A DNA stretch of 64,000 nucleotides from Caldilineales bacterium (GTDB taxonomy: Bacteria; Chloroflexota; Anaerolineae; J102): NCBI GenBank assembly GCA_037443945.1, contig JBBINH010000002.1, positions 33,644-97,643 on the forward strand. The letters are read 5' to 3'. A program made the position numbers and the translations under genes. The notes beneath the pieces are model-generated. The model was given only the letters and a program-made list of their open reading frames with translations. It ran no database searches and was not told where the DNA came from. Of the stretch, positions 15,414 through 57,292 are shown in pieces (the first letter of the stretch is position 1; every line of letters starts with the position of its first letter).

Positions 15414-15470
15414 CCGAGCGCGGATGGCATGAATCAGCCGTTTTCGCCACGTTCAACACCGTTTTTGTCT

Positions 15471-15938
15471 ATGTCTGCCCGAATCCCTGTCTATTTGGCC
15501 ATACTCGTCGCCTGGGTGGCCATGCTTGGCAGCCTCTATTTCAGCGAAGTCGCCGGCTTTGTCCCCTGCAAGCTATGCTGGTATCAACGCATTTTGATGT
15601 ACCCGTTGGCGCTTATCTTGCCCATCGCCGCATTACGTCGCGATGACAGTGTACCGGCCTATGTATTGCCTTTTTCGGTGACCGGTATCTTTGTCTCGAC
15701 TTATCACTATTTGCTGCAAAAAACAAACATCTTCTCGGCTGGCGGTGTTTGTACGGGTGGTGTGCCGTGTAATGTCGTCTATATCAACTGGTTCGGTTTT
15801 ATCACCATTCCTTTTTTGGCCCTCACCGCTTTTGTCATTATCTCCTCGCTGATGGTGATTTTCTACGCTCAAAACAGCCAGACCCAAACCGAGGACACAG
15901 CAACGGCGGTGGCCGATAGGGCCGTTGGCAAGCAATAA
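15471..15938 (+). CDS. disulfide bond formation protein B (DsbB/BdbC family)
   Basis: Four TM segments are present, with a CxxC (CKLCWYQR) in the first periplasmic loop and a second Cys pair (CTGGVPC). Confidence 0.7.
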
Positions 15939-17711: not shown

Positions 17712-17882
17712 GAGCTCTTCCTATTCCGTGCTTCGTTATGGCCATTATAAACCATGGCTATCGGAGGCGAAAGGTGGCGGATCGGGGACGACGGGACCCG
17801 ATCGAGACCTTCGTCTCCCTGCACCCACGGGGCTGTGGCAAACGACATCGAATGTCACCTGCGTTTTTCTCTTGTTCTGACC

Positions 17883-19808
17883 ATGCTCGTTCGTTTTCTT
17901 CTCCCCGGACTCTTAGCCCTGGTTCTGACGGCGACCGGCGCCGGCGGGGGCGGTGCTGTTGAACGCTCATGGCCTCCCGATCCGACCAGCCCGGCCTACT
18001 GGCATGACGCCTTGCGCCAGGCCCATGCTCCCGGCGAGGTATTGGTGCATTGGCGGACATCCTCGTGGCAGGCCCAGGGCCAACCCGCCGCTTTGGCCAC
18101 GGCGGAGCTGCTGAGCTTCATGCCCGAGCTGGGCTTGGCCCACTATCGGATTCAGGGCGATCTGGCCACCGCTCTGGCCGCTCTCAACCGGGATCCGGCC
18201 GTGGTGTTCGCCGAACCCAACTACCGGGTGTGGCCGGCTTTTGAGCCGGATGATCCCTACTATCGCCAATACGCTGCTAACGATTCCCTCCCCACCGGTG
18301 GTTATCTCAATCGTCTGAACATGGCCGCGGCCTGGGATATCACCCGTGGGCATCCGGCCATCCTTGTCGCCGTCATTGACAGCGGCATTGATCTCGAGCA
18401 CGAAGACATTCGGGCCAACCTGTGGCAGAATCCCGGCGAAGTGCCTGCCAACGGTCGTGATGACGATGGCAACGGTTTCGTAGACGATGTGTACGGTTGG
18501 AATTTTGCCGCCGACTCGCCCGATGTGGATGACTGGTTGGGCCACGGCAGTCATGTTGCCGGCATCATCGCGGCCCGCATCAACAACGGCCTCGGCATCG
18601 CCGGCGTGGCGCCCAAAACCCAGGTCATGGCCGTGGGCGTTTTTGCCCCGCCGGGGTACGGGACCTTCGCCGATGAGATTCGCGCCATCCTCTATGCCAC
18701 CGACCAGGGTGCCGATGTCATCAACCTGAGCCTGGGCAGCACGGCCTACAGCCGTGGCGAGGAAATGGCCGTCGACTACGCCGTGCGACGGGGGGTGGTG
18801 GTCGTGGCTGCTGCCGGGAACAACGGTCGCACAGTCTACCACTGGCCGGCCGCCCATCCGGCGGCCATTGCGGTGACGGCGACCACGGCCCGCGATGCCA
18901 TCGCCGGGTTTTCCAATCGCGGGGATTTTGTCGATCTGGCGGCGCCGGGGGTGGCCATCTGGTCGTTGCGACGGGGCGGCGGCTATCTGGCCATGAGCGG
19001 GACGAGCATGGCTACGCCCCATGTGGCCGGCGTGGCGGCGTTGATCCTGGCCCACAACCCCACCCTGACACCGGCCGAAGTCCGCGCCATCCTGGAGACG
19101 ACGGCCACCGACCTGGGCGTCCTCGGCCGGGACGAGGTCTTCGGCTACGGCCGCGTCGATGCTCTGGCCGCCTTGCGGGCCACGCCGCCCTATACCGGCA
19201 CCGTGCTCCCCGATCTCCCCGACTGGCTGCGCGCCCGGACCTGGCCACCTCTGTGCCGCGAACTCGTGCGCGAGGGCGATTTCGAGACCGACCCCCCGGT
19301 AGTCTGGCAGCTCGACGGCGCCGCTACCCTGACGACCACGGTGGCCTTATCGGGGACGCGTTCTCTGTTCCTGGGCGGCGAGCCGGGCCGGCAGGCCTCG
19401 GCACGGCAGACCTTCAGCGTGCCCTCCGACCTTCGGGCAGCGACCCTCGCCTTCGGCCTGCGCTTGGAAAACGAGGACTACGACCTGGGCAGCGACCCCC
19501 AATGGCCCGGCCGCGACCGGCTGAGCGTCTGGCTGCGCACATCCACGGGCGAAGCTCTTCTGGAGCTGTTACGGGCCGGGAATGCCGATTACAACCTGGC
19601 GGCAGGCTTGCCGTGGGATCGCTATCTCCATGTGCTGAACGAAGAGGAAATCGCCCTGCTGGCCGCCCAGGGTCAGGTGCAGATCGAGTTCACGGCGATG
19701 AACGACACCGACCCGCAGCCAACCCGGTTTTATATTGACGACGTGCGCCTGTGCGGAAGCCACGCACCGGTCTATTTGCCTTTGCTCCGGCGTCCCTCCC
19801 TGCCATGA
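17883..19808 (+). CDS. secreted subtilisin-like serine protease (peptidase S8) with C-terminal extension ending YLPLLRRPSLP
   Basis: Signal peptide MLVRFLLPGLLALVLTA. The catalytic triad motifs are present: D (VIDSGID), H (GHGSHVAG) and S (GTSMATPHVAG). There is a roughly 200-aa C-terminal domain. Confidence 0.9.
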   Translation: MLVRFLLPGLLALVLTATGAGGGGAVERSWPPDPTSPAYWHDALRQAHAPGEVLVHWRTSSWQAQGQPAALATAELLSFMPELGLAHYRIQGDLATALAALNRDPAVVFAEPNYRVWPAFEPDDPYYRQYAANDSLPTGGYLNRLNMAAAWDITRGHPAILVAVIDSGIDLEHEDIRANLWQNPGEVPANGRDDDGNGFVDDVYGWNFAADSPDVDDWLGHGSHVAGIIAARINNGLGIAGVAPKTQVMAVGVFAPPGYGTFADEIRAILYATDQGADVINLSLGSTAYSRGEEMAVDYAVRRGVVVVAAAGNNGRTVYHWPAAHPAAIAVTATTARDAIAGFSNRGDFVDLAAPGVAIWSLRRGGGYLAMSGTSMATPHVAGVAALILAHNPTLTPAEVRAILETTATDLGVLGRDEVFGYGRVDALAALRATPPYTGTVLPDLPDWLRARTWPPLCRELVREGDFETDPPVVWQLDGAATLTTTVALSGTRSLFLGGEPGRQASARQTFSVPSDLRAATLAFGLRLENEDYDLGSDPQWPGRDRLSVWLRTSTGEALLELLRAGNADYNLAAGLPWDRYLHVLNEEEIALLAAQGQVQIEFTAMNDTDPQPTRFYIDDVRLCGSHAPVYLPLLRRPSLP

Positions 19809-20164
19809 ATGTCGCGACACGCTTGTGGCGTCTCCGGCCGGTGGTCGCCTTGTTGGCCTGGACCGGCCTGATCGGTTTGGTGAATGCCCGGGCGCCGACG
19901 CCGCCGGCGCTGGCGGCTGCAGCCTTGCTGCTCCTTTTGGCCATCACCACCACAACGGCCCCTCTCTGGCTCCTCCTGCAAAGGCGCTTGCATCCCAACC
20001 GGGCGATTCCCCTACAAGTTCGCAGCGCCTGGCTGCGGGGGCTGGAGACAGGCCTGGTCGTTGTCATCCTGCTGATGCTGCGCATAGCCGGCCTTCTCGA
20101 CGGCATCAGCGTCGCCATCGTGCTGGTGACGATGATCCTGATCGATAAGGTTTTTAGCGTCTAG
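19805..20164 (+). CDS. small polytopic membrane protein, translationally coupled to the S8 protease
   Basis: Its ATG overlaps the protease TGA (ATGA). It has 3-4 hydrophobic helices. The track ORF 19751.. carries an N-terminal extension that overlaps the protease. Confidence 0.5.
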   Translation: MNVATRLWRLRPVVALLAWTGLIGLVNARAPTPPALAAAALLLLLAITTTTAPLWLLLQRRLHPNRAIPLQVRSAWLRGLETGLVVVILLMLRIAGLLDGISVAIVLVTMILIDKVFSV

Positions 20165-33008: not shown

Positions 33009-33246
33009 TCTGGGGATGCCTGTGGTATCATCGCCAAGTTCCGGTGGCTGTCGGCGACGTTAACATTTTGTCATGCGCCTGACCTGAGCCATTCATGCCG
33101 TTTTCACCTCATTCCCCTAGAATGGCACTGCAGTGACGGCCATGGCGTAGCGAGATGGTTGTCTGCCCATGCCCCCGTCTTGCCGGGACGGTCAGCCCCC
33201 GCCGTCGCGGCAATCTTATCTCAAGCTTATGGAGGTACTTTGCATC

Positions 33247-35721
33247 ATGATGAGTAAGAAGGGGTTCCTTCTTCTCAGCACGGCGTTTATTGTCGTGACT
33301 TTGATGGCTTTTGCCGTGGCGGCTGACGAGCCGGTGCTTCCGCCGGTGGAGCCGACCACGGTCGCACCGGCCCAACCCGAAGCAAGTGATTATGCCCCTC
33401 CGCCGGCAGGACAGCCGGGCTTTTATATCGAGAACGGTCGTTTCAACATCTTGCAGCCGGCCCAGGCCTATTATGCGACCGGGTCGTTCGGTTTTTGGGC
33501 CTGGTCTTCCCTCAATCCAGCGCGAGGGAGTTACAACTGGGAGATCCTCGATACCTGGGTGGCCGACAGCATCGCTGCCGGCTATGAAACCGTCGGCATT
33601 GCCCTCAAAACCTATACCGGTCGTTTTGTGGGATGCCAGTTTCAGGGCATCGATATGACCCCGGCCTGGGTGCTGGCCGGTCAGGACGGTATCCGTGGCA
33701 ACGCCGACGATCCTGTCCTGTTGTCAAGTGTGCCGGATCGTCGTGATTGCGATAGGGATGGCAATCCCGATAACGGTCCCTGGTACCTGATCCAGTACAA
33801 CCACCCTTACTACAAAAGCAACTACATTGCCTTCATCAACGCGTTGGCCGACCATTTGTTCAGCGCGCCTTATCGCGACCGGGTGGCCTGGGTGGCCATC
33901 GGCACGGGCAAGGATGGTGAGAACAAACCGGCCGATGATGACGACGATCCCACCTTGCTGGCCAACGGTCTTAGCACCGAGGCCTGGATCTTGCATGTCC
34001 AGGAGATTATCGAGACGTATCGCGCAGCGTTTTACGATGGGTCGGGATTCCCGCGCATTCAACTCGTCTTGCAGAATGCGCCCTTTTATCGCAGCCCCAT
34101 CGAGCGGCGCGACCTGGCCAATTACGCGGCCACGCGGCGGATTGGGCTTTCCATCAACAACATTACGTCCGATTTCAACTCGGTTGAATCATGCGCCAGT
34201 CCCAATTCGAACACGCGTTGCACGGGCATCTACGATCAGGCGCGGCAATACAACAGCATTGCTCCGATCATGCTGGAAAGCTACGCGTACATGATGCCCA
34301 CACCCAACGAGTTTTACTGGTCCATGGCGCGCGCGCTGGATGTCAGGGCCGACTACATCCGCCTTTCCAGTTTCTGGAATACCCAGACCAATCCCGACAA
34401 TTTGACCACGGCCGAATGGGCCAGCCGTTACATCGGGACGGGCTTCGCCGAAGGCCAGCGCCGACCGCCCAGCGTGTGGTCGCGCATGCGAGAGCATAAA
34501 GACCCCTGCTACCTGGGTTACGCCTTCATCAATCCCTGTAACTTCTGGCCGACCAACGGCAACTACGAGTTTTATCTCACCCAGCTCCACCTGCCCCAGT
34601 TCGGCGGTGTGACCATCCCCGTCACCGATGACGATCGCATCCGCATCACCGGCTGGGATCACAGCGAATCGAACGTGGTTGACAAGCGCTGGCACTACAA
34701 CACGAGTCCCTTTGACCAGAAATTGCGCGATGCCGGTCTTTTCGCCCTGACCCCCAGCGGTGTCCAGAATCAGGTCGATCCGGGGTGGGTGGCACGGCGT
34801 AGCGATCAGGCCACGAATAACACCAAGTTCATTTTCGACGCCGCCGATCGCTACTTTGCCCGCTCGCAGCCGCCGGCCGAAAGCACCTTCAAGGTCGTCA
34901 TCACCGTGACCTATCTGGATGTGGGCAACGACCAGTGGTTGCTGGTCTACGATTCGACGACAGGGCCCAGGGCGGCCACGGTGTACGCCATCAACGATTG
35001 GAATGTGCGCCGTGGATTGGCCGTGGACGACTTTTTACCGGTAGATGGCCGTGTCCTGCCTCCGGTCAATTACGTCCAGAAGACCGGAACGAATCGCTGG
35101 AAGGTGGCGACCTTCGTCATCGAGGACGGCAACTTTAACAACCTGGTGCTCAACGAGGCCCGTGCCGACTTTTACATCGAATCCCGCAGTCCCAGCGGCC
35201 AGAAGGACGGCGATGAGTACATCCACCACGTGGATGTGCGCAAGGTGGACGAATTTATCGAAGTAACACCGACGCCGACGCCGACCACGGCGCCGACGGC
35301 CACGCCCACGCCGACGGCCACACCGATGCCGACGGCCACGCCCACGCCTACCGCCACCCCGACGCCCACACCCTCCACCGGCAGCATCGTCGGCAAGGTC
35401 TATTACGATCGCAACCAGAACCGTCAGCCCGATCCCGGCGAGGGTTTGGCCGGCGGTGTGTTGGTCCTGAGCGGTCCTACCCATGCGCAGACCACCTCGG
35501 CGGTAGACGGCTCGTATGGCTTCCATGCCTTGCCGCCCGGTAGCTACGTGCTACGTTCGACGCCGCCGGCAGGCTACAACCGGGCCGATCCCGACACGGT
35601 GGCGCTTTTCGTCCAGGCCAATACCATCTTGACCTGGGACTTTGCCCACGAACCTCTACCGGATACGACGCCTTCGCCTCCCGCAGGCGAGCCCCTCTAT
35701 CTGCCGCTGTTACGGCGTTAG
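33247..35721 (+). CDS. secreted GH42-like TIM-barrel (glycoside-hydrolase-like) protein with Thr/Pro linker and C-terminal SdrD B-like domain; ends in YLPLLRR
   Basis: Signal peptide MMSKKGFLLLSTAFIVVTLMAFAVA. 'WAWSSLNPARGSYNWEILDTWV' resembles the GH42/GH35 N-terminal barrel signature (W..EP..G.Y.W..LD). It is paralogous to the N-terminal ~600 aa of the giant protein. A TPTPTP linker and 'VYYDRNQNRQPDPGE...GSYGF' SdrD-B domain follow. Confidence 0.75.
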   Translation: MMSKKGFLLLSTAFIVVTLMAFAVAADEPVLPPVEPTTVAPAQPEASDYAPPPAGQPGFYIENGRFNILQPAQAYYATGSFGFWAWSSLNPARGSYNWEILDTWVADSIAAGYETVGIALKTYTGRFVGCQFQGIDMTPAWVLAGQDGIRGNADDPVLLSSVPDRRDCDRDGNPDNGPWYLIQYNHPYYKSNYIAFINALADHLFSAPYRDRVAWVAIGTGKDGENKPADDDDDPTLLANGLSTEAWILHVQEIIETYRAAFYDGSGFPRIQLVLQNAPFYRSPIERRDLANYAATRRIGLSINNITSDFNSVESCASPNSNTRCTGIYDQARQYNSIAPIMLESYAYMMPTPNEFYWSMARALDVRADYIRLSSFWNTQTNPDNLTTAEWASRYIGTGFAEGQRRPPSVWSRMREHKDPCYLGYAFINPCNFWPTNGNYEFYLTQLHLPQFGGVTIPVTDDDRIRITGWDHSESNVVDKRWHYNTSPFDQKLRDAGLFALTPSGVQNQVDPGWVARRSDQATNNTKFIFDAADRYFARSQPPAESTFKVVITVTYLDVGNDQWLLVYDSTTGPRAATVYAINDWNVRRGLAVDDFLPVDGRVLPPVNYVQKTGTNRWKVATFVIEDGNFNNLVLNEARADFYIESRSPSGQKDGDEYIHHVDVRKVDEFIEVTPTPTPTTAPTATPTPTATPMPTATPTPTATPTPTPSTGSIVGKVYYDRNQNRQPDPGEGLAGGVLVLSGPTHAQTTSAVDGSYGFHALPPGSYVLRSTPPAGYNRADPDTVALFVQANTILTWDFAHEPLPDTTPSPPAGEPLYLPLLRR
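35266..35375 (+). repeat. Thr/Pro-linker coding low-complexity repeat (ACNCCN)n
   Basis: Reiterated ACG CCG ACS CCS units encode [37 protein letters not shown]. Confidence 0.8.
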
Positions 35722-35774
35722 CCCGGCGGCAAGGCATTGACCACCCGCCTTCATTCTCGTCCGTTCCTGCCCTT

Positions 35775-37085
35775 ATGGTTGGGCAGGAACGGAACGATTC
35801 CGGTTTCCCTGTGCCCGGTTTGTGGCGCTTCGTGTTGCTCCTCGTTAGTTTGGCCATCTGCGGTGGCAGCGTGCTCTTCCTCCCGGTCGCTGCCCATCCG
35901 GCTCGTTCACCGGTTGGCATGGCCGTCTCCACCGAGGCGACACCCATCCCCCGTGTTTATTGTGGGGGTGTCTATCGTGGCGATACGAGCACCGGCACGG
36001 CTCAGATCGATCGCTATGCCTGTCGACCCGATTGGCCCGAAACCGGACCGGAACATTTCTATCGCCTGTCCATCCCGACGACACAATCGCTGACCCTGGT
36101 CCTGAGTCATCCCCCCGGTCTGGATCTGGATGTGTTCTTGCTGGAGCATGAACAGCTCGATCGTTGCCACGCTGCCGATGCCACGCTGGCATTGGCCGCC
36201 TTAGCACCGGGTCCACATCGCATTGTCGTGGATGGTTTTGCCGACAGTCAGGGACCTTATACGCTTGCCGTGCTCTGTGAAGGGCCACCCTTGGCCACAC
36301 CAACCCCGACCGATACGCCGCTGCCGACGGCTACCCCGACGCCGACTCTCGTCCTGACGGCTACGCCGACCCCCACCCGCACGCCCACGCGGCCGCGCCT
36401 CAGCTACGATGCCTTTTTCCCGGCCCAGCGCCGCCGCTATCCCCCGCCTACGCCGCTGCCGACTACCCTTATCCTCCAGCCCGGTCGGCAAGGCTACGAC
36501 GGACTCGCCGATAGCTACCTCAGCGCTTGGGCTATTACCGAGAATTATGCTAATGTAGACCGGCTTGCACTTCGGCAGTCCGACATCATGGCTCCGGTCT
36601 TACGCTTCCGGCTTGATGGTCTGCCTGCCGATGCCCGCATTGTCGAGGCACGTTTGAGCCTGTGGGCCTTAGCCCGCAGTAACGACAACCCGGCCACGGC
36701 CGGCCTCTATCCCCTTCATCGTCCCTGGCAGGTGGATGAAGTCACCTGGCAGCAGGCGGCCAACGGTGTCCCGTGGGCCCAACCCGGCGCCAACGGCGTA
36801 CCCGTCGACCGGGGAGGCGTGCCTCTGGCCGTGCAGACGGTGACGGAGACGGGCCGCTGGTATGAGTGGGACCTGACCCCGCTTGTCCAGGCCTGGGTTG
36901 CCGACCCTACAACCAATCATGGCATGATCCTCAAAGCTCTGGCCATACCCCGCGTGCTCTACACTTTTGCGGCAGCCGAATATCACAACCCGGCTGCCCG
37001 ACCTCGGTTGCTCATCCGTTACTGGACTCCCACCCCATCCCACCAGGCCTCAACCGTGCCGTTTACGCCATCGCCGTCCCCCTGA
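35775..37085 (+). CDS. secreted protein with PPC (pre-peptidase C-terminal)-like domain, TP linker and DNRLRE-like C-terminal domain
   Basis: Hydrophobic N-terminus. 'FYRLSIP...LDLDVFLLEHEQ...GPYTLAV' resembles the PPC domain. The C-terminal 'WYEWDLTPLVQAWVADPTTNHGMIL' matches the DNRLRE-type module also present in the giant protein. Confidence 0.65.
   Translation: MVGQERNDSGFPVPGLWRFVLLLVSLAICGGSVLFLPVAAHPARSPVGMAVSTEATPIPRVYCGGVYRGDTSTGTAQIDRYACRPDWPETGPEHFYRLSIPTTQSLTLVLSHPPGLDLDVFLLEHEQLDRCHAADATLALAALAPGPHRIVVDGFADSQGPYTLAVLCEGPPLATPTPTDTPLPTATPTPTLVLTATPTPTRTPTRPRLSYDAFFPAQRRRYPPPTPLPTTLILQPGRQGYDGLADSYLSAWAITENYANVDRLALRQSDIMAPVLRFRLDGLPADARIVEARLSLWALARSNDNPATAGLYPLHRPWQVDEVTWQQAANGVPWAQPGANGVPVDRGGVPLAVQTVTETGRWYEWDLTPLVQAWVADPTTNHGMILKALAIPRVLYTFAAAEYHNPAARPRLLIRYWTPTPSHQASTVPFTPSPSP
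36295..36395 (+). repeat. Thr/Pro-linker coding low-complexity repeat
   Basis: Encodes [34 protein letters not shown]. Confidence 0.8.
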
Positions 37086-37101
37086 CCAGGAACGAAGCAC
37101 C

Positions 37102-37854
37102 ATGATCATCAGCAAACCTCAGATCCTCGGTTCCAAATTGCGGTCTACTGTGGAGGTTTCTCCTTCCTCAACGACAACCCAGGTTGTTCCCTTTGTCCCA
37201 CCGGCGCCGACGTTGACCGGCTACCGTCTGGCCAAGCGAACCCTGGACGTTGTTGTGGCCTTGTTGGCGCTTATCCTGCTTTCGCCCCTGTTTATCTTGA
37301 TCTGTTTGGCCATCAAACTCGAAGACGGCGGCCCTGCCATTATCAAACAGCGTCGCGTGGGCTTGGGAGGCCGGCCCTTTGCGTTTTACAAGTTCCGCTC
37401 GATGACGTTGGGGGTCGATCATACCCTAGCCCATCGAGCCTTTGCGCAACAGGTTATCCGCGGGGAGATTACCCAGGGGCCTCGTAGCAACGGCGGCGTG
37501 CTCAAACCGACCGGCGATGGTCGTGTGATCACCCGCGTGGGCCGCATTTTGCGCAAGACGAGTCTGGACGAGCTGCCGCAATTGTTCAACGTTCTGATGG
37601 GTACCATGAGTTTGGTGGGGCCGCGGCCCTCGATGGATTACGAGGCCGAAGCTTACTTCGATTGGTATCTGCCCCGGCTGTCGGTTTTGCCCGGGATTAC
37701 GGGGCTGGCTCAGATCAACGGCCGCAGCAGCATCCCCTTCCCCGAAATTGTGCGTTGGGATCTGCGGTATATCGAACAACGCTCGTTCTGGCTCGATCTG
37801 AAAATCTTGCTTAAGACCTTGCCGGTGGTTGTGGGGATGCGGAACACGGGGTGA
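37102..37854 (+). CDS. monotopic polyprenyl-phosphate phosphoglycosyltransferase (bacterial sugar transferase, PglC/WbaP C-terminal-domain type)
   Basis: A single N-terminal membrane helix ([22 protein letters not shown]) is present. 'KFRSM', '[22 protein letters not shown]' and '[12 protein letters not shown]' are hallmark PF02397 motifs. Confidence 0.85.
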
Positions 37855-37876
37855 AGGGCTTTCTGCGGGTACGGCG

Positions 37877-38629
37877 ATGGCGCTGAACCCGGACGATCTG
37901 GCCTATTTTGCCCGCGGGGCGCGGGCGAACCCGCGTTTCTGGGCCCGATTCGGGGGCATGCCCGATCTGAAGGGAAAACGGGTCCTCGATATCGGCTGCG
38001 GACACGGGAGTTTGTGCGTGGATATGGCCGCGGCCGGCGCCGAGCAGGTCGTGGGGTTGGATCTGAACTGTCGTCTGATTGCCTTTGCCGAGGCCTACGT
38101 CGAACGATTTCGGCCGGAACTGCGGTCGCGGCTGCGATTTGCCTGTCAGGATCTGCGCGACTATCCGCCGATGCTGTTCGACCTTATCGTCTCCAAAGAT
38201 ACGTTTGAGCATGTCCTCGATCTGGAGGGCTTGCTGGCCGAAATCCACCGACGGTTGGTGCCCGGAGGGCGGTTGTATGCCGGCTTCGGACCGCTCTACT
38301 ACAGTCCCTTTGGCGATCACGATGCCGTGCGCCTGGGCGTGCGGTTGCCTTGGGCGCACGTGCTCATGGGCGACCGCCGGGTCATTGCCCATGTCAATCG
38401 GCGACGGCGGGTCCCGATCCAGACGATCCGGGAATTGGGCCTCAATCAGCTTCGCCTGCGCGACTACCGCCGCCTTTTTGCGGCCTGCGGCTTACAGACC
38501 GTAGCCTGGTGGACAAACCGCACCGACCATCCTGTCGGCAAAATGTTGGCCGTGCTCGCCCACGTACCCGGTCTGGCCGATTATATGACCTTCAACGTCT
38601 ACTGCATCCTCCAAAAACGCGGCGCCTGA
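37877..38629 (+). CDS. class I SAM-dependent methyltransferase
   Basis: 'VLDIGCGHGSLCVDMAAAGA' is motif I. An acidic residue after beta2 (GLDLN) and motif II (LIVSKDTFEHV) are present. Confidence 0.75.
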   Translation: MALNPDDLAYFARGARANPRFWARFGGMPDLKGKRVLDIGCGHGSLCVDMAAAGAEQVVGLDLNCRLIAFAEAYVERFRPELRSRLRFACQDLRDYPPMLFDLIVSKDTFEHVLDLEGLLAEIHRRLVPGGRLYAGFGPLYYSPFGDHDAVRLGVRLPWAHVLMGDRRVIAHVNRRRRVPIQTIRELGLNQLRLRDYRRLFAACGLQTVAWWTNRTDHPVGKMLAVLAHVPGLADYMTFNVYCILQKRGA

Positions 38630-38737
38630 GCTTGGTCGTGTCGGCACCGCCGTCGGGAAGCGAGTCCCGGTTGTTTTGCGGCAGGGCTTTGGCTTCGTCC
38701 ATGACCGTGGTCTATAATCCGGTAACCGGCGCCAACG

Positions 38738-41700
38738 TTGCGTCTGTTCCTGGGTATCCGTCCGATGTCCCCCTCTCGTTCGTCGCGACGCCTGGTTTTC
38801 CTTTTCCTTGCCATCGGGTTGATCGTGGTGGTGATCGGTGGGGTTGGCCTGCTTTGGTGGCGGTGGTGGCGCCCGCCATCCCCTGTCCCCTCACCCACCG
38901 CTATCGTAACGACCACACCGACGCCGGCTATGCCATCCACACCGACGCCGACCCTAACGCCCACGCCGACGCCGGTAGCGACCGAAGTTGCTGCTCAGGT
39001 GGTGTTTGGCTCGCTGCAGCCGGGGGTGTACGAGGCCTATGATCATCTCAGTCGCGAGCCCGAACTGCGCGGGGGCACCCTGGAATTTCGTTGGAACCAG
39101 GTCGAACCTCTCCAGAACGGCTATAACTGGTCGGTCCTGGACCGGGCCTTGGCGCAACTTCCGACCGGACGCCGCGCCATCCTGCGCCTGATGGTGCGTT
39201 GCAACGAGGGCAACAACGAGGTCTGCACGCCGGATTGGGCGCTGCGCGACGAGTTCCGTCCCATCGTTGCCGCCGTGCCCCCGGCTTGTGGTCTAAGCGC
39301 AAGCACGCGAAAGCACTTGAACTATCTGGACGAGGGTGTCCAGCGCGAGCTTTTGGAGCTGATCCGCCTGTTGGGCCAACGGTACAATGCCGATCCGCGG
39401 GTGACGGCCGTGGAAGTCGGCGTGGGTTATAACGGTGAATCGTCGCCGTGGCCGTTGACCACGCTCTGCGACAAGGAGGCCCAACGCAGCGCTTACGAGG
39501 CCGCCTACGGCCCTACAGGACCGCGACAATGGGCGGATTGGCATCTCCGCCAGCTAGAGGCCTATACGGCCGCTTTCCCGGATCAGACGTTGCTCACCAT
39601 CATCACCGGGGATTACGCCGAGGCCGAGCGCTGGCGGGTGGTGCAGTGGGCCGTGGAGCACGGGGTGGGGCTGATGGTGACCTCGCTGGTGGCCGACTAT
39701 CATAGCAATCGCGGCAAAAGCGGCGATTTTTGTTTTTGGGGTGCCATCACGCGGCCGAGAGCAGCTCCCAGCGCCACCCTGGCCAATGCCTACCTCACCC
39801 AATGGGCGGCCTTGGACCACGTGTGGGAACAGGTCCCTATCGGTTTTGAGTTCAATAACGCCTCAAGCTTGATCGGCCTCGGTATCGAGGCCCACACCTG
39901 GTGGTCGGCCCTTAATGCTCTGGACAAACATGCCGATATCATCGAACCGTTTCGGGCCAACACCCGCCAAACTGCGGTTTGGCGTTTTGTCAATGCCTAC
40001 ATCGGCCAGACGGCCGGCACCACACCGGCGGTCTGGATTGTTTTCCGCAGCAGCAATCCCGCTCTGCCTGACGCCCAATGCGGCGATCTGTTCGATTACT
40101 CGTTTTTCCTCATCCATGAATTGGAGAGGCTGGGGTACGATACCCTCCTGCAGCAACAAAGCGTGCGTCGGGCCGATGCCTTGACACGACGTTTCCAGAT
40201 CGGCCCGGCTACCGATTGGCGCGGGGCTTATGCTCGTGAAACGGCCGACGGATGGCCGGTTTTCAACCTCGATGTCGATGATACGTTCAGCAGGCGCCTC
40301 GGCGGTGCGGTTGAGGTCGTCGTCACCTATTTCGATCATGCCAACGGCGGGCGTTGGGCGCTCGATTACGATAGCCTCACCGGTCCGCGTCGGGCCGGTG
40401 AAGTCGTGCTGACGGGGACCAACACCTGGCGAGAGCAGGTTTTCCGGTTGAACGATGTCCGCTTCGGCAACGGTTTGCCCAAAATGCAGGCCGATAGCCG
40501 TCGGACGGGTTTTGATCTGCGTCTGGACCGGGTGGACGGAACGAACGATAGCTTCCATCGGGTCCTGGTGCGGCCTGTGGGGACGATTCCCCTGATGAGC
40601 CCCACACCACGACCAGGCCGGACACCAACGCCTTCTGCCCCCACACCGACGCCGCAGTCGCCTTTCTACTTTCGCTTCCGACAGGGGATCGACGAGTACC
40701 GAGGCGTGCGCGATACGTTTATCGAGGCCTTTCAGCCCGACGTTGCGCGTGCCAACGAGCCGCTGTTGGGCGTGCGACCTCTCGACCGAGCTGCTGCCTT
40801 GCTGTATTTCGACCTCGGTCGTCTTCCTCCGGATGCCCTTGTCCATCGGGCCTATCTCTATCTGACGCGGCTGGCGCCGGCCGATCAAACCGTCACCCTG
40901 ACCCTCTATCGGTTGTTGCGGTCCTGGAGCGAGATGGCGACCTTCCGCCAGGCCGATACCGACAGCCCCTGGGAGCAGCCGGGTGCTCTCGGCCTGAGCG
41001 ATGCCGCTTCCAACCCCGTGGCCGGGCCGCTACCGGTTGCCCCCGGCGCCGTGGCCCGCTTCGATGTGACCGCCCTGGTCCAGAGTTGGATCGCCGATCC
41101 GATGCTCAATCAGGGCCTGATCGTGCGGGGTGACAGCAACGTTGCGCGACGATACGAGTTTGCCAGCAGCGAAAACCCTACACCGGTTTGGCGGCCGTAT
41201 CTGGAAATCCTTCTAGAAACGCCGACGCCCACGCCAACCCGCACGCCCACCCCGACGCCCACCCCGACTGCCACGCCTACGGCCACAGCCACGCGTACGC
41301 CGACCTCGACCCGCACGCCCACATCCACCCCGACCCCCACCCCCAGTCCCACCGCTACGCCGACGCCGACCCCCACACCGGCCGTACGCCTGCGCGAGGA
41401 GACGGTCTTGCGTCGCGGGCCTGGCTTCAATTTCGATGGACTCGCCACGGCAGCTGCCGACACCGTCCTTCCGCTGCTGGGACGCAGCGCCGACGGCGAT
41501 TGGCTGGCCGTCTGTTGCGTAGGAACCGATCCGGCCTGGGTACCCGGCATGAATGCCGAGGTGTTGCACATCACAACGGAGGCTTTGCCCATCATTAGCT
41601 CGCCACCGACGCCCACACCGACGCCTACGCATACACCGACCCCCACACCCTCGCCGACACCGTCACCGACGGCCACCGCAACGGCGACGCCCACGCCCAC

Positions 41701-43714
41701 GCCGACAGCCACCCCTACGCCCACGCCCACACCCACCGCCACGATAACCCCCACGCCGACGGCTGTGGTACCGGCCTGTCTGCCGTTTCGCCTGTTCGTG
41801 CTCGATATCGGCACCCAACCCAAAGGCGTGGCCGTGGGTAGCCTGGCCGATGGTACCGTCGTGACCGGCATCGGTCTGTACGAAAGCGCTGCTTTGGCTC
41901 TGGTCGTCGGCGATGAGGTCCGCATGATACCCACCGACGGTCGGGGCGCCAACGGTGTGGCGTTTGCCAACGGGCGGTTTTACATGGTCCATCGCGATAG
42001 CCGCAGCGTCAGCATCATCGACCCGGTGGCAGGCCGACAGGTGGGCCGTCTTCCGACGGGTCGGGAACCGTGGGGCGCGGCCGCCACTGCCGACAGGCTC
42101 TATGTGGCCGATTTTGCCGACGACACGGTGAGCGTCTTTGACCTGAATGACGAACAGCTCGTGGTCAGGGTGCCGGTCGCTCCGCTACCGGCCTTTGTGG
42201 CGGCAGCAGCCGATCGGGCGTTCGTGGCCCATCTCGGCGGTCAGATCAGTGTCATCGGTCCGGAGGGCGAGGTGCTTGCCGTTTTCGGACCCCTTATCGG
42301 CGGCGATGCGTTCGGTCTGGCCTACGACGCCGTCCACGATCGGCTGTGGGCGGGAAGCCGTCAGGCGCGCAGCCTGTTGGCCCTCGACGCCAGAACGGGC
42401 GTTGTTCAGGCCCGCTATCTTCTCCCGGCCGCACCGTATGCCGTGGCCTATAATCCGGCGACCGATCAGGTGTTGGCCGTGGATGCCGTTCACAATCGGC
42501 TGATGATCGTCCAGGCAGCCGACGGCGAGCTGCTAGGCCTCTTGCCGCTCAGCACCCAGGGTAGCGATCACGGCGGCCAGGGGCTGGCCGTATCCGCCAA
42601 CCGGATTTTCGTCCCCGCTTTTGCAGCAGGAGCGCTGGACGGTTTCGACGGTGGACCGTGTGTCACACCGACGCCAACGCCGACATCCACTCCTACCCCC
42701 ACGCGCACGCCGACCCCCACACGCACCCCGCGCGTGCGCACGCCGACCCCCACACGCACATCGACTCCGACACCGACCATCACGCCTACGGTTACACCGA
42801 CGGCCACACCCACGCCGACATCGACGCCAACCGTCACAGCGACGCCGACGGCCACGTTTACGCCGAGCCCCACACCCACGCCGACGCCGGCCACGCTTAT
42901 CGCCAAGATTCAAATCGTCTGGCCTCACGGCGGTGCTGCCGTGACCGAGGCCGAGCGGGCGAACATCACCGTCCATCTCTACGAAGACGAGGCTCTGAAC
43001 CCGGTGGTGTGTGACTTCGCCGCCACGGTGCGGTTATGGGCGGCGCGCAACAATGAACCGGCACGTCCCGTTGCCGTCGGTCAGCCTCGTCTGACCGAGC
43101 AGGACGGTCGGCGCTTTACCGTCTGGGATTTCAACGACATCGATGTCGCTGCAGCCCGCGATCCCCGCACTAAACTTCACTTCTTCGTGACCGTGGATGG
43201 CTTCGAGACGCGACACAACGTCTGGACCCATGGCGCCGATGCTCGTACCCTGGCACCTGTCCAGGATATCCCCACCGCCGTGTTGACGACGCTGCCCTCT
43301 GCCCTTGACGCACGCATCGAGATCGTCTGGCCTCACGGTGGCCGAGCGGTAAGCGAAGCTCGACTGGCCAATATCACCGTCTATCTCTTCCGCCGGGATA
43401 CCCTGGAAGCCCTGGGGCCTTCGGTGCGGCCGTTGCCGACGGTCCGTCTGCACAGGGCGCACAACAACGAGCCGGACGGCGGCCGCGCGGCGGCGCCGAT
43501 CGGTATCCCCCGGACCATCACGGCCCAGGGTCGGACCTGGCTGGTCTGGGATTTCAACGATGTGGATGTGGCTGCGGCCAACGATCCGCAGAATCGTATC
43601 TATTTCTGGGTGGATACGGATGAAGTGCCGACGGCGACGAACATCTGGACCCATGGCGTGCTCGGCCTCACGCGGGCGCCGATACAGGATGTGCCGGCCC
43701 GCAGTTGTCGGTGA
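38738..43714 (+). CDS. giant secreted multidomain protein (1658 aa): GH42-like TIM barrel + beta-sandwich + DNRLRE-like domain + TP linkers + YVTN-type beta-propeller + two tandem C-terminal ~135-aa repeats
   Basis: Signal anchor ([23 protein letters not shown]). '[24 protein letters not shown]' is the barrel signature. It is a paralogue of the 33247..35721 N-terminal region (shared ...YDS(L/T)TGPR... block). '[22 protein letters not shown]' is the DNRLRE-like module. About 7 YVTN-like ~40-aa repeats are present (e.g. [28 protein letters not shown]). The C-terminal duplicated unit is 'I(E/Q)IVWPHGG...ANITV(H/Y)L...WDFND(I/V)DVAAA.DP...(F/Y)F(F/W)V..D...T..N(V/I)WTHG'. The real start may be ATG 38765 (MSPSRSS...). 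Confidence 0.8.
38911..38985 (+). repeat. Thr/Pro-linker coding low-complexity repeat
   Basis: Encodes [25 protein letters not shown]. Confidence 0.7.
41218..41384 (+). repeat. Thr/Pro-linker coding low-complexity repeat (ACGCCSACSCCC)n
   Basis: Encodes [54 protein letters not shown]. Confidence 0.85.
41601..41762 (+). repeat. Thr/Pro-linker coding low-complexity repeat
   Basis: Encodes [53 protein letters not shown]. Confidence 0.85.
42663..42897 (+). repeat. Thr/Pro-linker coding low-complexity repeat (longest, ~235 nt)
   Basis: Encodes [77 protein letters not shown]. Confidence 0.85.
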
Positions 43715-43720
43715 ACGGCG

Positions 43721-44908
43721 ATGAGAAGCCAATCCTCCCCAAGCGGGACTGCCGTTTCATCCCTGCCGGCCCGGGCCTCGTGGTGGCGAGCCGAAGGGCT
43801 TTATCTCGCCGGGGTGTCGGTGGCGGCGGCCCTGTTCGTTTTTCTGTACGGTCGCATCGATTACACGGTCGAACCGTATGCCTCGGCCGATCTGTATCAC
43901 TACCGGCAGATAGCCCAGATGGCACCGAGTCTGCCTGTCGGGGTGCAACGCCCCTTTGCTTTTCGTCTCCTGGGGCCCTATTTGGCCGGCCTCTTGCCGT
44001 GGCCCGATGTCACGGCCTTCTATTGGCTCACCGTAGCGACGGCGTTGGTGTTGGCCGTGGCGACCTATGGGTTCTTACGCAGCCATGCCATTCGCCCGGG
44101 AATAGCCGCCCTGACCACGTTCTTTTTTCTGAGCAATCGCTATCTGTTCGGTTTCAACATCTGGGACTATTTTCAGATCAACGATTTGCTGATCCTGCTT
44201 TGTCTCGTGGGGCTGTTTTGGGCCCTGGAACGGCAACGCTACGGCGTGTTTGCCGTTGTGCTGGCCATAGCCGTGTTGGTTCGGGAGACGGCGTTGTTGC
44301 CGATCCCCGTCGCCTTGGTCTATCTGTGGGAACAGGGCCGTCTGCGGACCGATGTCGTTCGTCTACTGGTGGCCTGTTTGCCGGGATTGGCCTTGTTCGG
44401 GCTGGTGCGCACCATCATCGAGCCGGTCGGCGGTCTGGGTCTGGTGGCGGCGGGATTGCGCTACGCGCCCAAGCTGGCCCAACTGGAACCCCTTTTTCGC
44501 TTGGTGATCAATCCTTTCATCCCCTTCGTTTCGTTGCCGTTGCTTTTCTGGCGCAGTAGCCTGGCCTTTTTCCGCCGACGGCGATATCTGCTCGTGTATC
44601 TGGTCCTTGTTTTCATCAGCACCCTTTTCGGCAGCAACAACGAACGACTGATGGCCCCGGCCTTCCTCGTGTTCTATCTGCTTATGGCCGTGCTCATCCA
44701 GCACCACCTGGCCGAGCGTCTGTGGCCGACGGCGCTATTGCCGGTAGGTGCCGCGTTGACCAGCCTCAGCCACGAGTGGGCGCGCTTTCCCCTACCCGAT
44801 CGCCGCCTCACCATCGGGCTGTCTCTTGGCGCCTTGCTTGTCATCACTCTGGTCGTCTTGCCGACGGCCGTGCATCAGGGTTTCGGAGGGCGAGATGGAG
44901 ACGATTGA
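43721..44908 (+). CDS. polytopic integral membrane protein (about 10-11 TM), possible GT-C-like/DUF2029-type membrane glycosyltransferase
   Basis: Highly hydrophobic, with an aromatic-rich periplasmic-loop pattern. It starts 7 nt after the giant gene and overlaps the downstream gene by 14 nt. I found no soluble catalytic-domain motifs. Confidence 0.6.
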   Translation: MRSQSSPSGTAVSSLPARASWWRAEGLYLAGVSVAAALFVFLYGRIDYTVEPYASADLYHYRQIAQMAPSLPVGVQRPFAFRLLGPYLAGLLPWPDVTAFYWLTVATALVLAVATYGFLRSHAIRPGIAALTTFFFLSNRYLFGFNIWDYFQINDLLILLCLVGLFWALERQRYGVFAVVLAIAVLVRETALLPIPVALVYLWEQGRLRTDVVRLLVACLPGLALFGLVRTIIEPVGGLGLVAAGLRYAPKLAQLEPLFRLVINPFIPFVSLPLLFWRSSLAFFRRRRYLLVYLVLVFISTLFGSNNERLMAPAFLVFYLLMAVLIQHHLAERLWPTALLPVGAALTSLSHEWARFPLPDRRLTIGLSLGALLVITLVVLPTAVHQGFGGRDGDD

Positions 44909-46190
44909 CTTGCTCGTTACCCATATCGGTCAGTTGGTCACCCCACCGGCCGCTCCGGCGGCCCTGCGGGGAGCGGCCATGGCCCGGCTCGACACCGTGG
45001 TCGACGCTGCCCTCGCCGTTCATCGCGGCCGGGTTGTCGCCGTTGGCCCTCGTCTCGCCCTGGAGACGGCTTATCAACCGGCGCAGGTACTCGATGCGGG
45101 CGGAGCCTGTGTTACGCCCGGTTTGGTGGATCCGCATACCCATGCCGTTTGGGCAGGCGAACGTCGGGGAGAATTCGAACAGCGCCTTGCCGGTGCTTCC
45201 TATATGGACATTCTGGCCGCCGGAGGCGGTATCCTCGCTACCGTCGCGGCTACCCGTCGTGCCGATCGCGAGCAGATTGTGGCCGAAACCCTTCCGCGTC
45301 TGCAGACTATGCTTGCCCATGGCACCACCACGGCCGAGATCAAGACCGGTTATGGTCTGACTCTGGAGGACGAGCGCAAGCTCCTCGACGCCATCGCCGT
45401 GCTCGATGCCCGTCAGCCCATGGACCTGGTGCCCACCTTTCTCGGTGCCCATGCCGTACCGCCGGAGTTCCGACACAACCCCGAGGCCTATGTGGATCGG
45501 ATTGTCGAGGAGATGTTGCCCGAGCTCGCCTATCTGGTCTACACCGTCACCGGCGAAGACGGATCGTCCTACCGCCAGCGGGCCGTCCATTTTTGCGATG
45601 TCTTTTGTGAGCGTGGGGTCTTCGATCTGGCGCAAACCCGGCGCATCCTGACCGCAGCCAGGGGCCACGGCCTCGATCTCAAGCTCCATGTGGATGAGTT
45701 TGAACCCATGGGTGGGGTCAGTCTGGCCGTGGAATTGGGGGCGATTTCGGTCGACCACCTCGTGCGTACCGGCGAGGAGGAACTGGCACGACTGGCCGCC
45801 TCCAATACCATCGGTGTGGTCTTGCCCGGCACGCCTTTCGGCCTGGGCCATACCCATTTTGCCCCGGCGCGACGGCTGATCGACTTGGGCGGCGCCGTGG
45901 CCCTGGCCACCGATCTGAATCCCGGTACCACATGGTGCGAGTCAATGCCGATGATGATGGCACTGGCGACCCGCTATATGCGCTTGACTCCGGCCGAGGC
46001 ACTCACGGCAGCCACCCTCAATGCCGCCCACGCCATCGGTCTGGGTCGTTTTATCGGCGCCTTGGCCCCCGGCTATCAGGCCGATTTTGTTCTTTGGGAT
46101 ACCGACGATTATCGTGATTTGACCTATCGCTATGGAGTCAATCTGGTCAAAAGCGTCTATAAACGCGGAAAAGAGGTAATAAAGCGTTAA
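44895..46190 (+). CDS. hutI: imidazolonepropionase-family amidohydrolase (HutI-like)
   Basis: 'PGLVDPHTHAVWAGERRGEFEQRLAGASYMDILAAGGGILATV' closely follows the HutI metal-binding/N-terminal signature. Downstream His/Asp ligands are present (HVDEF, DLNPG). The start is set at METIDLLVTH. Confidence 0.8.
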   Translation: METIDLLVTHIGQLVTPPAAPAALRGAAMARLDTVVDAALAVHRGRVVAVGPRLALETAYQPAQVLDAGGACVTPGLVDPHTHAVWAGERRGEFEQRLAGASYMDILAAGGGILATVAATRRADREQIVAETLPRLQTMLAHGTTTAEIKTGYGLTLEDERKLLDAIAVLDARQPMDLVPTFLGAHAVPPEFRHNPEAYVDRIVEEMLPELAYLVYTVTGEDGSSYRQRAVHFCDVFCERGVFDLAQTRRILTAARGHGLDLKLHVDEFEPMGGVSLAVELGAISVDHLVRTGEEELARLAASNTIGVVLPGTPFGLGHTHFAPARRLIDLGGAVALATDLNPGTTWCESMPMMMALATRYMRLTPAEALTAATLNAAHAIGLGRFIGALAPGYQADFVLWDTDDYRDLTYRYGVNLVKSVYKRGKEVIKR

Positions 46191-54707: not shown

Positions 54708-56249
54708 TTGCGATTCCCGGCCATGCGCCTGTCTATCTTGTTGACCAACACCGGCTTCAATGTCGCCGGGATGATCCTGACGTCGCTCCTGGCACTGGTG
54801 CTTACGCCCTGGCTAATCCGAGGGCTGGGTGCGGAGCTGTTTGGGGTATGGGCCTTATTCGGTGTAGTCATTGCCATGGCGCAAATGCTGGATCTCGGTC
54901 TGGGCCGGGCCTTGATACGCACCATCGCTCATCATAGGGCCTTAGGGCAATGGTCGGCTATAGCCGAAGCGCTCAACAGTGTGCTCTGGCCCTTGCTGAT
55001 ATCGGCCGTCTTCCTTAGCGCCATCGTCGTGGTTTTGGCTCCTTGGTGGGTACACTTGTTGGGTGTCCCCCCCTCATACGTTGTCGCCGTAGTGCCGGCC
55101 TTTCGCCTGCTTGGCTTGAGCTTTGCACCGTTGGTCTTGACGCTCGTCTTGGCCGCCGTCGTGGACGGCTGTCAACGCATGGTGTACACGAATCTTGCGC
55201 TCATCGCCAACCGCAGCACATTTGCCGTTATAGGTGTGTTGGCCTTGACGTTGGATTGGGGCTTGACAGGAGTGGCGTTCGCAACGTTGGTCGGTGTGGT
55301 GGTACAAATGGCGTTGCTCCTAGCAGCAGTGCGGCGGGTGGCACCGGCGTTGCGTTTTTCGCCTCGCTTGCTTCGGGTGCGGCTGTTATACCGGGAGTGG
55401 CGCTTTGGACGTTTTGTGTTTCTGACGAGTTTGATCGCGCTGGGTTTTACGGCCGGAAACAAGCTCATCCTGGCGCGATGGGTAGGATTAACGGCTTTGG
55501 GTTACTACGAGTTGGCCGTGACCATCGCTACCCAGTTGTTCACCCTGGCTTTGGCCATGGCCCAGGCACTCTATCCGGCGTATGTCTCTGCTCTGGCCGA
55601 AGGCGGCATGGCCATGGTACGACAGCTCTACGGTCATGCCCTGCGTCTGGCCATGCTTGTGTTGGCGCCGCTTACTGCCGTTATCGTGGCCTTGGCGCGG
55701 CCGTTTGTGTTGGCCTGGTTGGGGCAGCCGGTAACGGCAGTCATCACCGGCCTGCACTGGCTGAGCATCGGTTGGGCATTCGTCGGTTTGGCAGCGGTGG
55801 CTTCGGTCGGTTTGCAGGCCCTGGACCGGCCGTTTTGGGCTACTGTGTTTTCCCTCTATAACTTGCTTATCAATCTGCTGTTGGCCATCATGTGGGTGCC
55901 GGTGTGGGGCTATCATGGCCTTATCGCGGCTAACATGGTGGCTATCACCAGCAGTGCTGCCCTGACCCAGCTTGTCTTCGGGCATGCGGTCGGTGTATCC
56001 CCTGCCTTCTGGCTAAGGGCCTTGTCCCCTGCGATGCTGGTATGGTTATCGACTCTGGTCGGATTATGGACCTGGTTTGGCAGTCGTTGGCAACATCCTC
56101 ATGTCCCCGGTCTGTTTCTATTGGGAGGCGCGTTCCTCCTCATTTACACAGGAGGCTTATGGCTTTTGCGCTTGTTACGACCTGAGGAAGCGGCCTGGTT
56201 GCAACGTCGCATCCGGCGACATTCCGGCTATCAGGGGGTGGCGCTATGA
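54708..56249 (+). CDS. polysaccharide biosynthesis protein / oligosaccharide flippase (Wzx/MOP superfamily)
   Basis: About 14 predicted TM helices. The N-terminal 'GFNVAGMILTSLLALVLTPWLIRGLGAELFGVW' is typical of the PST/Wzx family. Confidence 0.8.
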   Translation: MRFPAMRLSILLTNTGFNVAGMILTSLLALVLTPWLIRGLGAELFGVWALFGVVIAMAQMLDLGLGRALIRTIAHHRALGQWSAIAEALNSVLWPLLISAVFLSAIVVVLAPWWVHLLGVPPSYVVAVVPAFRLLGLSFAPLVLTLVLAAVVDGCQRMVYTNLALIANRSTFAVIGVLALTLDWGLTGVAFATLVGVVVQMALLLAAVRRVAPALRFSPRLLRVRLLYREWRFGRFVFLTSLIALGFTAGNKLILARWVGLTALGYYELAVTIATQLFTLALAMAQALYPAYVSALAEGGMAMVRQLYGHALRLAMLVLAPLTAVIVALARPFVLAWLGQPVTAVITGLHWLSIGWAFVGLAAVASVGLQALDRPFWATVFSLYNLLINLLLAIMWVPVWGYHGLIAANMVAITSSAALTQLVFGHAVGVSPAFWLRALSPAMLVWLSTLVGLWTWFGSRWQHPHVPGLFLLGGAFLLIYTGGLWLLRLLRPEEAAWLQRRIRRHSGYQGVAL

Positions 56250-57292
56250 CGCTCTGCGATGTCAGCCTGGTCATTGTTACCTGGAATGTAAGCACGGCGC
56301 TCACCCGATGTCTGGCGGCGTTGCCGGCAGCCTGGGATAGCGGTGACGAACTTCCGTTCCGGCACTGGGAACTGATTATCGTGGATAATGCCTCGACCGA
56401 TGGCACGGCCGCTGCCGTGTCGCAACAGGCGATGGCCTTGCTGGCGACGAGAACCGGTCGGCCCCCTCGCCAGGTGCGCTTGCTGGTCAATGCTCACAAT
56501 CGTCTGTACACGGCGGCGGCTAACCAGGGCCTGGATGCGGCTCAGGGGCGTTATCGCCTCGTGCTCAATCCGGATACCATCCCTACCCCCGGCAGCCTGG
56601 CGCGGTTGGTAGCGCTGGCCGAGGCCCATCCCCGCATCGGATTGGTCGGTCCGCGCATCCTAACGACCGAAGGCTGCGATGATCTGCGGACAGGACGTCA
56701 TTATCCCACCCCGTGGTCGGAATTCAGCGACTGGTTGGGATTGACGCGACGCTTTCCCGGTTCACGACTATGGGCTGCTAACCTGCGTCCTGATGTCCCC
56801 CGCACCCGCACAGGCCCGGTTCCGGTTCTTTCGGGGGCGTGCTTGCTTTTCTCGGCTTCGCTCCCTGCGCATTTGCAGCGTTTTGACCCTGATTATCCCA
56901 TGTACGGCGAGGATCTCGACCTTTGTCGGCGTGTCCAGGCGGCCGGTTATGAGACCTGGCTGGCAGCCGAAGCCGTTATCCAACATATCGGCGGCCTGAG
57001 CAGTCGGCAGGCACGGGTCGACGCGGCCTTGCTGGCTGCGGATGGGGTCAATCGCTACTTTCGACGCTGGCATGGCCTCCAGGCAGCACAACGCCATCGT
57101 CTGGGGATGGCCGTTGTAGCCGCTGTTAAGTGGTCGGTCTTCAGCCTGTTGAGTTGGTTCGGCCTGGAGAAACAACCCGACCTGCAGCGTCGTCTTCATG
57201 CCGGATTATGGCGTTGGGCCTGGAGTGGCCGTCTGGACAGAACGGGGACAACGGCTGCCGAAGTTCACACCGTGGTTTTGTCATGCTCATGA
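56246..57292 (+). CDS. glycosyltransferase family 2
   Basis: 'VSLVIVTWN', 'IIVDNASTDGT' and the DxD region are present. It has an ATGA overlap with the flippase gene. Confidence 0.85.
   Translation: MTLCDVSLVIVTWNVSTALTRCLAALPAAWDSGDELPFRHWELIIVDNASTDGTAAAVSQQAMALLATRTGRPPRQVRLLVNAHNRLYTAAANQGLDAAQGRYRLVLNPDTIPTPGSLARLVALAEAHPRIGLVGPRILTTEGCDDLRTGRHYPTPWSEFSDWLGLTRRFPGSRLWAANLRPDVPRTRTGPVPVLSGACLLFSASLPAHLQRFDPDYPMYGEDLDLCRRVQAAGYETWLAAEAVIQHIGGLSSRQARVDAALLAADGVNRYFRRWHGLQAAQRHRLGMAVVAAVKWSVFSLLSWFGLEKQPDLQRRLHAGLWRWAWSGRLDRTGTTAAEVHTVVLSCS

Follow-up and report, generated by a model that had tools for sequence, protein, structure and literature searches.

Two otherwise unrelated proteins of a Caldilineales bacterium (Chloroflexota) end in the same short tail, YLPLLRR. 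Both are encoded in one 64,000-nucleotide (nt) stretch of contig JBBINH010000002.1, the whole of which was analysed and is called the window below. One carrier is an S8 subtilase of 684 amino acids (aa) (17754..19808, + strand); the other is an 850-aa TIM-barrel protein resembling glycoside hydrolase (GH) families 35 and 42 (33169..35721, +), referred to here as the GH-like protein. We found that the subtilase tail is, by curated model, a member of the NCBIfam YLP-box family. The motif is thus already catalogued rather than new, and the family name, with its 'putative', assigns it neither a mechanism nor a partner. In the samples examined the tail is, going by the sequences, specific to Chloroflexota. 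We infer, with a probability of roughly 0.6, that the YLP-box is a surface sorting or processing signal that acts after Sec-dependent export and is recognised by a sorting factor.

In the subtilase the heptapeptide is encoded at 19773..19793 (+). The preceding valine (19770..19772) is counted in the box, and four trailing residues, PSLP (19794..19805), separate it from the TGA stop codon (19806..19808), giving the C-terminal end VYLPLLRRPSLP (longer form, CGSHAPVYLPLLRRPSLP). In the GH-like protein the heptapeptide lies at 35698..35718 (+), with a leucine (35695..35697) as the first residue of the box and a TAG stop codon (35719..35721) directly after it; this protein ends AGEPLYLPLLRR, its last residues being LYLPLLRR, with no residue between box and stop. 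A six-frame translation of the window contains YLPLLRR exactly twice, at the ends of these two long open reading frames (ORFs), against an expectation of 0.0009 from the window's own six-frame residue frequencies. The two 21-nt tail stretches are identical at 16 of 21 bases and all five differences are synonymous, while the flanking DNA outside the tail matches at 19 of 90 aligned bases, the level expected by chance. Because the tail differences are all synonymous and the flanks are at chance level, a recent DNA duplication of the tail is excluded. Selection instead acts on the tail peptide and not on its DNA, since, in addition to the synonymous differences, the tail has been preserved among the orthologues of each family despite diverging linkers. 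An earlier reading of the window made from the letters alone (the sequence-only reading) had noticed the identical heptapeptide with its different codons and had argued for selection on the peptide over duplication; both points hold, as does its description of a tail on unrelated exported proteins with no transmembrane helix after it. The translations contain no transmembrane segment after the box in either protein, and the longest hydrophobic run in either tail is six residues, too short to span a membrane. Neither protein has a cysteine within its last 15 residues.

A search of NCBIfam release 20 with isolated tails gave matches to NF053834.1 ('ultrashort_CTERM') and to NF050076.1 ('sort_motif_YLP'), which share the description 'YLP-box putative sorting motif-containing protein'. 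These models are 10 and 11 positions long and have curated cutoffs of 10 and 15 bits, respectively. The subtilase tail scored 14.0 bits on NF053834 and was not reported on NF050076; the VYLPLLRR tails of four other carriers passed both models, scoring 15.6-17.4 bits on NF050076. Scans with full-length proteins miss both models owing to HMMER filters. The features that go with the family are also present: the motif lies near the C-terminus of a protein with a signal peptide, and it has multiple unrelated carriers in Chloroflexota. The sequence-only reading had stated that the tail matches no known signal. This is right for LPXTG, PEP-CTERM and GlyGly-CTERM, but the two NCBIfam models already hold the motif.

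Conservation and distribution of the tail

Orthologues of both families retain the tail down to approximately 41-45% identity, even as the linkers preceding it diverge. For the GH-like protein we collected 67 homologues, all named ones coming from Caldilineales or Chloroflexi assemblies. A [YF]-hydrophobic-P pattern is present no more than 24 residues from the end in 50 of the 51 full-length orthologues (45-94% identity), and the region before the box ranges from long Pro/Thr tracts to none at all. The strict anchor is found in 84 of 112 long orthologues of the subtilase (down to 41% identity), and most of the others carry I-[FL]-P-[LIV] variants. Taken over both families, the homologues bear the names Caldilineales, Anaerolineae or Chloroflexi. 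In an alignment of 105 subtilase orthologues the proline of the box (P676) reaches a conservation of at least 90%. Relatives thus share the tail, as the sequence-only reading had proposed to check. The resulting consensus is hydrophobic-[YF]-[LM]-P-[LMIV]-[LIVWF], with R/K at position -2, followed by 0-13 unconserved residues. R/K is frequent at -2 and after the core in many carriers, but the residue after the core may be Q, W, L, R, N or T in orthologues. The RR seen here is one variant and is not conserved, so 'hydrophobic-then-dibasic', the earlier description of the tail, does not apply to the motif as a whole.

Two groups of orthologues end differently. In one clade of subtilases (P0116, P0121, P0129, P0134, P0139 and others) the box is followed by a conserved extension of 11-13 residues, L-N-[TSA]-x-x-P-P-A-x-S-[HR], often with an N-x-[ST] pattern. 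A subgroup of GH-like orthologues, P0057-P0065, lacks the YLP-box and ends in DFDFALVTP or GEFGYGLVIP. We considered the DFDFALVTP ending as a second tail motif and rejected it: the ending forms the final strand of an FN3-like domain that these proteins have in addition, and it has no NCBIfam match. The subgroup shows that the YLP-box is a module that is gained and lost.

We searched the genomes of bacterial and archaeal species, each species being represented by one, for hydrophobic-YLPL[LF]RR, whether or not a stop codon followed. Among the 120 matches listed, six end a long ORF or one with a Pro/Thr linker no more than two residues from the stop, and all six belong to Chloroflexota: three to Chloroflexales and one each to Anaerolineales, Candidatus Epilinea and Caldilineales. 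Among the listed matches from other phyla, 20 in long ORFs are internal and two are terminal but apparently out of frame (Fisher p = 1.5e-6 and 4e-4). As a control we took unselected neighbouring ORFs of at least 150 aa, which ended in the box in 0 of 549 cases in other phyla versus 2 of 33 at Chloroflexota loci. Like the sharing of the tail by relatives, this result comes out in favour of the sequence-only reading by its own tests.

A metagenome scan for the exact tail followed by TGA gave 40 matches, approximately 14 of them in ORFs of 300-3163 aa and the rest in short chance ORFs, a number too small for statistics on neighbourhoods. The carriers are long proteins from about ten unrelated families, all of extracellular types: S8 proteases, GH-like proteins, DUF11 repeats, FG-GAP with F5/8C, Calx-beta/cadherin, beta-helix/PMP, DUF5122 propellers, CotH with LTD, and LVIVD. 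Judged by inspection, Sec signal peptides are present on all carriers whose N-terminus is intact, a point that the sequence-only reading had proposed to test. Four other apparently exported proteins in the window have no box; the box therefore marks only a subset of exported proteins. Carrier genes can be adjacent, as in contigs L062 (1500..7263, - strand; a beta-helix/PMP-repeat protein and an FG-GAP/F5_8C protein) and L132 (1..4833, +; an unknown protein and a beta-helix protein), and in L094 a homologue of the beta-helix carrier family lies near a Calx-beta carrier.

The carrier proteins and their neighbourhoods

The subtilase, assigned from its ORF translation (Peptidase_S8, 3e-66), comprises a fervidolysin-like N-terminal prodomain, a catalytic domain and a C-terminal beta-sandwich. 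Its closest NCBIfam match in the catalytic domain is mycosin, below the cutoff, and one database homologue, P0068, is 100% identical to it. A signal peptide, MLVRFLLPGLLALVLTATGAGG, judged by inspection to be of the Sec type, begins at an internal methionine at 17883, and for this reason the true start is probably 17883 rather than 17754. In the AlphaFold2 model (predicted local distance difference test (pLDDT) 87.7) the last strand of the beta-sandwich spans residues 657-670, and residues 671-684, including the box, are coil with a pLDDT of approximately 60. Two cysteines of the beta-sandwich, Cys501 and Cys667, are invariant among the 105 aligned orthologues, which suggests a disulfide between them; Cys667 is 17 residues from the end, within the folded domain. 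A DsbB gene (15429..15938) lies two genes upstream of the subtilase gene and is also present in contig L161.

Directly downstream, a gene at 19805..20164 (+) encodes a protein of 119 aa that has three hydrophobic segments and is predicted to be a membrane protein. The ATG of this gene and the subtilase stop codon overlap (ATGA), which suggests translational coupling of the two genes. The membrane-protein gene is also called in Logan contig L161 and is not kept beside the subtilase orthologues of L163 and L164. In these two Anaerolineae-like contigs (L163, 7657..11929; L164, 7717..11914) genes for a MoxR-type AAA ATPase and a DUF58 protein lie on the same strand directly before the subtilase orthologue, an arrangement absent from the window. 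We rejected MoxR and DUF58 as partners of the tail, as their association with these two orthologues is not general.

For the GH-like protein, identified from its ORF translation, Pfam, AlphaFold2 and Foldseek, the SdrD_B and Glyco_hydro_42 matches in Pfam are both weak. Its signal peptide, MSKKGFLLLSTAFIVVTLMAFAVA, also of the Sec type by inspection, starts at Met 33250. The AlphaFold2 model (pLDDT 86.3) consists, in order, of a helix at the signal-peptide position (residues 3-22), a barrel of alternating strands and helices, a beta-sandwich, a disordered Pro/Thr linker (model residues 678-707), an SdrD_B-like sandwich and the tail, which is disordered coil with a pLDDT below 50 (model residues 806-823). 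Foldseek matched the model to GH35 beta-galactosidases (E 6e-9) and its last domain to the B region of the staphylococcal adhesin UafA. The sequence-only reading had labelled the two carriers an S8 protease and a TIM-barrel/SdrD-B protein; the Pfam assignments behind these labels stand. For the second protein they are the weak SdrD_B and Glyco_hydro_42 matches, and its predicted fold is the GH35-like one.

The GH-like carrier heads an exopolysaccharide-type cluster (33169..46190 and 54708..62108) whose members include a CBM96/disaggregatase-repeat protein, a Bac_transf sugar transferase, a methyltransferase, a 1658-aa GH42-like protein and a 395-aa polytopic membrane protein without a Pfam match, and, further on, a flippase, GT2/GT4 enzymes and Wzm/Wzt. 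A similar cluster follows a distant orthologue of the GH-like protein in contig L162 (10001..23291).

A third carrier probably lies at the edge of the window. An ORF at 62021..64000 (+), in which Pfam detected no domain, extends past the end of the window and is represented here by its 5' part. Over 625 aa it shares 75% identity with a Caldilineales protein of 810 aa (L073, 2610..5042), which ends in GLYLPLLRR. The 810-aa protein holds the same position after Wzm/Wzt as the window ORF, which directly follows the window's Wzm/Wzt ABC-transporter genes (59901..62108). From this homology the ORF is probably a YLP-box carrier whose tail lies beyond the window. The window is otherwise an ordinary Caldilineales chromosome, with genes for RecJ, FtsH, PrfA/B, FtsY, RelA, a Mur ligase, Pol I and polysaccharide synthesis.

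A proposed surface-sorting role and its alternatives

We propose the following route for the carriers. Sec would export both proteins by way of their ordinary N-terminal signal peptides. The last 10-20 residues would remain unfolded outside the final domain and display the core hydrophobic-[YF]-[LM]-P-[LMIV]-hydrophobic with its near-invariant proline. A dedicated Chloroflexota factor at the membrane or wall would read this core as a linear peptide and sort the carriers to the surface; by analogy with characterised C-terminal sorting signals, it might also cleave off the variable residues after the box and tether the protein. One possibility for this reader is a wall-associated transpeptidase or a CPBP-like protease acting on a six-residue, proline-centred peptide; CPBP proteases process bacterial MYXO-CTERM-type signals (10.1101/2023.06.07.544157). 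Two properties of the carriers support a sorting role. The box takes the place of LPXTG, after a stalk or Pro/Thr linker, on adhesin-like proteins, proteases and glycosidases, and it is the only motif common to proteins that are otherwise unrelated. That the outcome would be cleavage or covalent attachment rather than docking, an idea taken from the analogy, we put forward tentatively, and with more doubt than conviction.

Several findings weigh against a sorting signal. With no transmembrane segment, there is nothing obvious to hold the substrate at the membrane, and the tail in this respect departs from the tripartite design common to all characterised systems, in which a signature motif is combined with a transmembrane segment and an Arg cluster (10.1101/2023.06.07.544157). 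The box stands at no fixed distance from the C-terminus and its trailing residues vary, which fits cleavage and docking equally, so that the data do not tell them apart. Signal peptides were recognised by visual inspection rather than with a predictor. The tail of the GH-like protein (PLYLPLLRR) was not reported by hmmscan on either YLP-box model in three sequence contexts, including neutral padding. This is probably a filter or threshold effect of the 10-position model, because the same heptapeptide passes in other contexts; RWVYLPLLRR was likewise unreported, from which reporting near the filter threshold appears erratic. A literature search found no publication on a bacterial YLP-box motif. 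The motif is not mentioned in the myxosortase preprint of Haft (10.1101/2023.06.07.544157), and the name YLP-box does not occur among the source names of cluster members.

The search for a partner enzyme also counts against the proposal. Among the approximately 40 genes of the window that were scanned, Pfam identified no sortase, exosortase, rhombosortase/rhomboid or CPBP protein. All-against-all clustering of 117 neighbours from 17 carrier loci returned only syntenic or carrier families as recurrent. The co-occurring sortase-like gene for which the sequence-only reading had proposed to look thus did not turn up in the window or in the 17 loci. One CPBP gene lies 5 kb from a single orthologue; being a single case, it was not taken as evidence and was rejected as a candidate partner.

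The strongest alternative, though we consider it unlikely, is that the box stays on the mature protein and binds a receptor protein of the wall, S-layer or sheath, in the manner of SH3, WW or PDZ-type ligands, and in this way keeps the carrier at the surface uncleaved. Docking motifs are typically built like this disordered tail, with a core of 5-7 residues, a single invariant proline and flanks that vary, and such a motif would need neither the processing enzyme that was not found in the window or the 17 loci nor a transmembrane segment that offers the tail to an enzyme in the membrane. However, no receptor candidate was found, and every C-terminal sorting signal that has been characterised in prokaryotes undergoes cleavage (10.1101/2023.06.07.544157). 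The distance of 0-13 residues to the carboxyl end bears on this reading to a limited extent, as it excludes carboxylate-dependent PDZ-type binding only.

The hydrophobic stretch, with its aromatic residue and Arg/Lys, could partition into the outer face of the cytoplasmic membrane and act as an interfacial anchor without any partner. The hydrophobic core does include Tyr or Phe, and R/K is frequent around it, including the RR of the window tails, but the core offers only six hydrophobic residues interrupted by a proline, and conservation does not extend to the basic residues (Q, N, T, W and L often stand in their place). A near-invariant proline and ordered positions favour specific recognition over bulk hydrophobicity, and restriction to one phylum is unexpected of a purely physical anchor. 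We regard this explanation as improbable.

A degron for precursors that fail to be exported, or a removable C-terminal propeptide with no role in localisation, is if anything slightly more improbable. The tail is exposed, hydrophobic and found on exported proteins only, and S8 proteases commonly have C-terminal propeptides. But only a subset of exported proteins carry the box, with four in the window lacking it, and the non-enzymatic repeat proteins among the carriers make a shared propeptide role unlikely. Known C-terminal degrons, moreover, are read at the extreme C-terminus, unlike a box followed by 0-13 variable residues. Finally, the tail is almost certainly not a product of chance or composition, a part of the last domain, or an element of the DNA or RNA, for example a terminator or an overlapping start signal. 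The subtilase stop does overlap the start of the next gene, but the GH-like copy has no overlapping gene. Two copies were observed against 0.0009 expected, and their codons differ only synonymously. Two families and at least ten architectures preserve the tail, which comes after disordered Pro/Thr linkers and takes the form of coil in the models.

Chloroflexota are filamentous bacteria abundant in wastewater, soils, sediments and hot springs, with a poorly understood cell envelope whose single-membrane state is debated. If the YLP-box is a sorting signal, a tag shared by their proteases, glycosidases and adhesin-like proteins would define a surface proteome that is predictable from sequence. 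The more specific reading, that the box is the address tag of a Chloroflexota-specific sorting or anchoring pathway working without a transmembrane retention segment, is a serious possibility that we hold to be somewhat short of probable. A tag with no membrane-spanning part would, if this is true, be a mechanistic outlier among bacterial sorting signals, and its partner enzyme would be both a new tool and new biology, showing how these bacteria display their surface proteins. What the sequence-only reading came upon from the letters is a motif already catalogued by curators, though without an explanation.

Comparison with known C-terminal signals

We compared the tail with the established classes of C-terminal signal. 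In Gram-positive adhesins, UafA among them, LPXTG comes after a stalk of the SdrD_B or Pro/Thr type. The YLP-box resembles this signal, read by sortase, in being a C-terminal tag on Sec-exported adhesins, proteases and glycosidases, in its L-P core, and in its position after a Pro/Thr or SdrD_B/Cna-B stalk. It differs in having no conserved T-G, no transmembrane helix and no obligatory basic tail. No LPXTG model matched the full-length proteins or the tails, and the helix of approximately 20 residues followed by a basic tail is absent from both.

With PEP-CTERM, PGF-CTERM, GlyGly-CTERM and MYXO-CTERM the YLP-box shares the form of a lineage-specific C-terminal motif found on many unrelated exported proteins per genome. 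Compared with the tripartite signals of exosortases, archaeosortases, rhombosortases and myxosortases, however, it consists of the motif only, and no tripartite CTERM model matched the tails at E values up to 10. The C-terminal domains of the type IX secretion system (T9SS-CTD, type A or B) are folded beta-sandwiches of approximately 70-100 aa; neither Pfam nor NCBIfam matched one here, and the tail is 7-11 residues of coil.

A likeness of another kind is to the eukaryotic CaaX box, an ultrashort, largely aliphatic C-terminal motif that also has no transmembrane segment and is trimmed by an intramembrane protease, Rce1, of the CPBP family. CaaX requires a prenylated cysteine at precisely four residues before the C-terminus, on the cytosolic side of the membrane, whereas the YLP-box contains no cysteine, stands outside the cytoplasm and varies in its distance to the C-terminus. 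Since the defining features of each of these classes were sought in the tail and are missing from it, we conclude that the LPXTG, tripartite CTERM, T9SS-CTD and CaaX families do not include it, although in outline it may work as their members do. Set against the NCBIfam YLP-box, by contrast, it is the same tail, with no structural difference.

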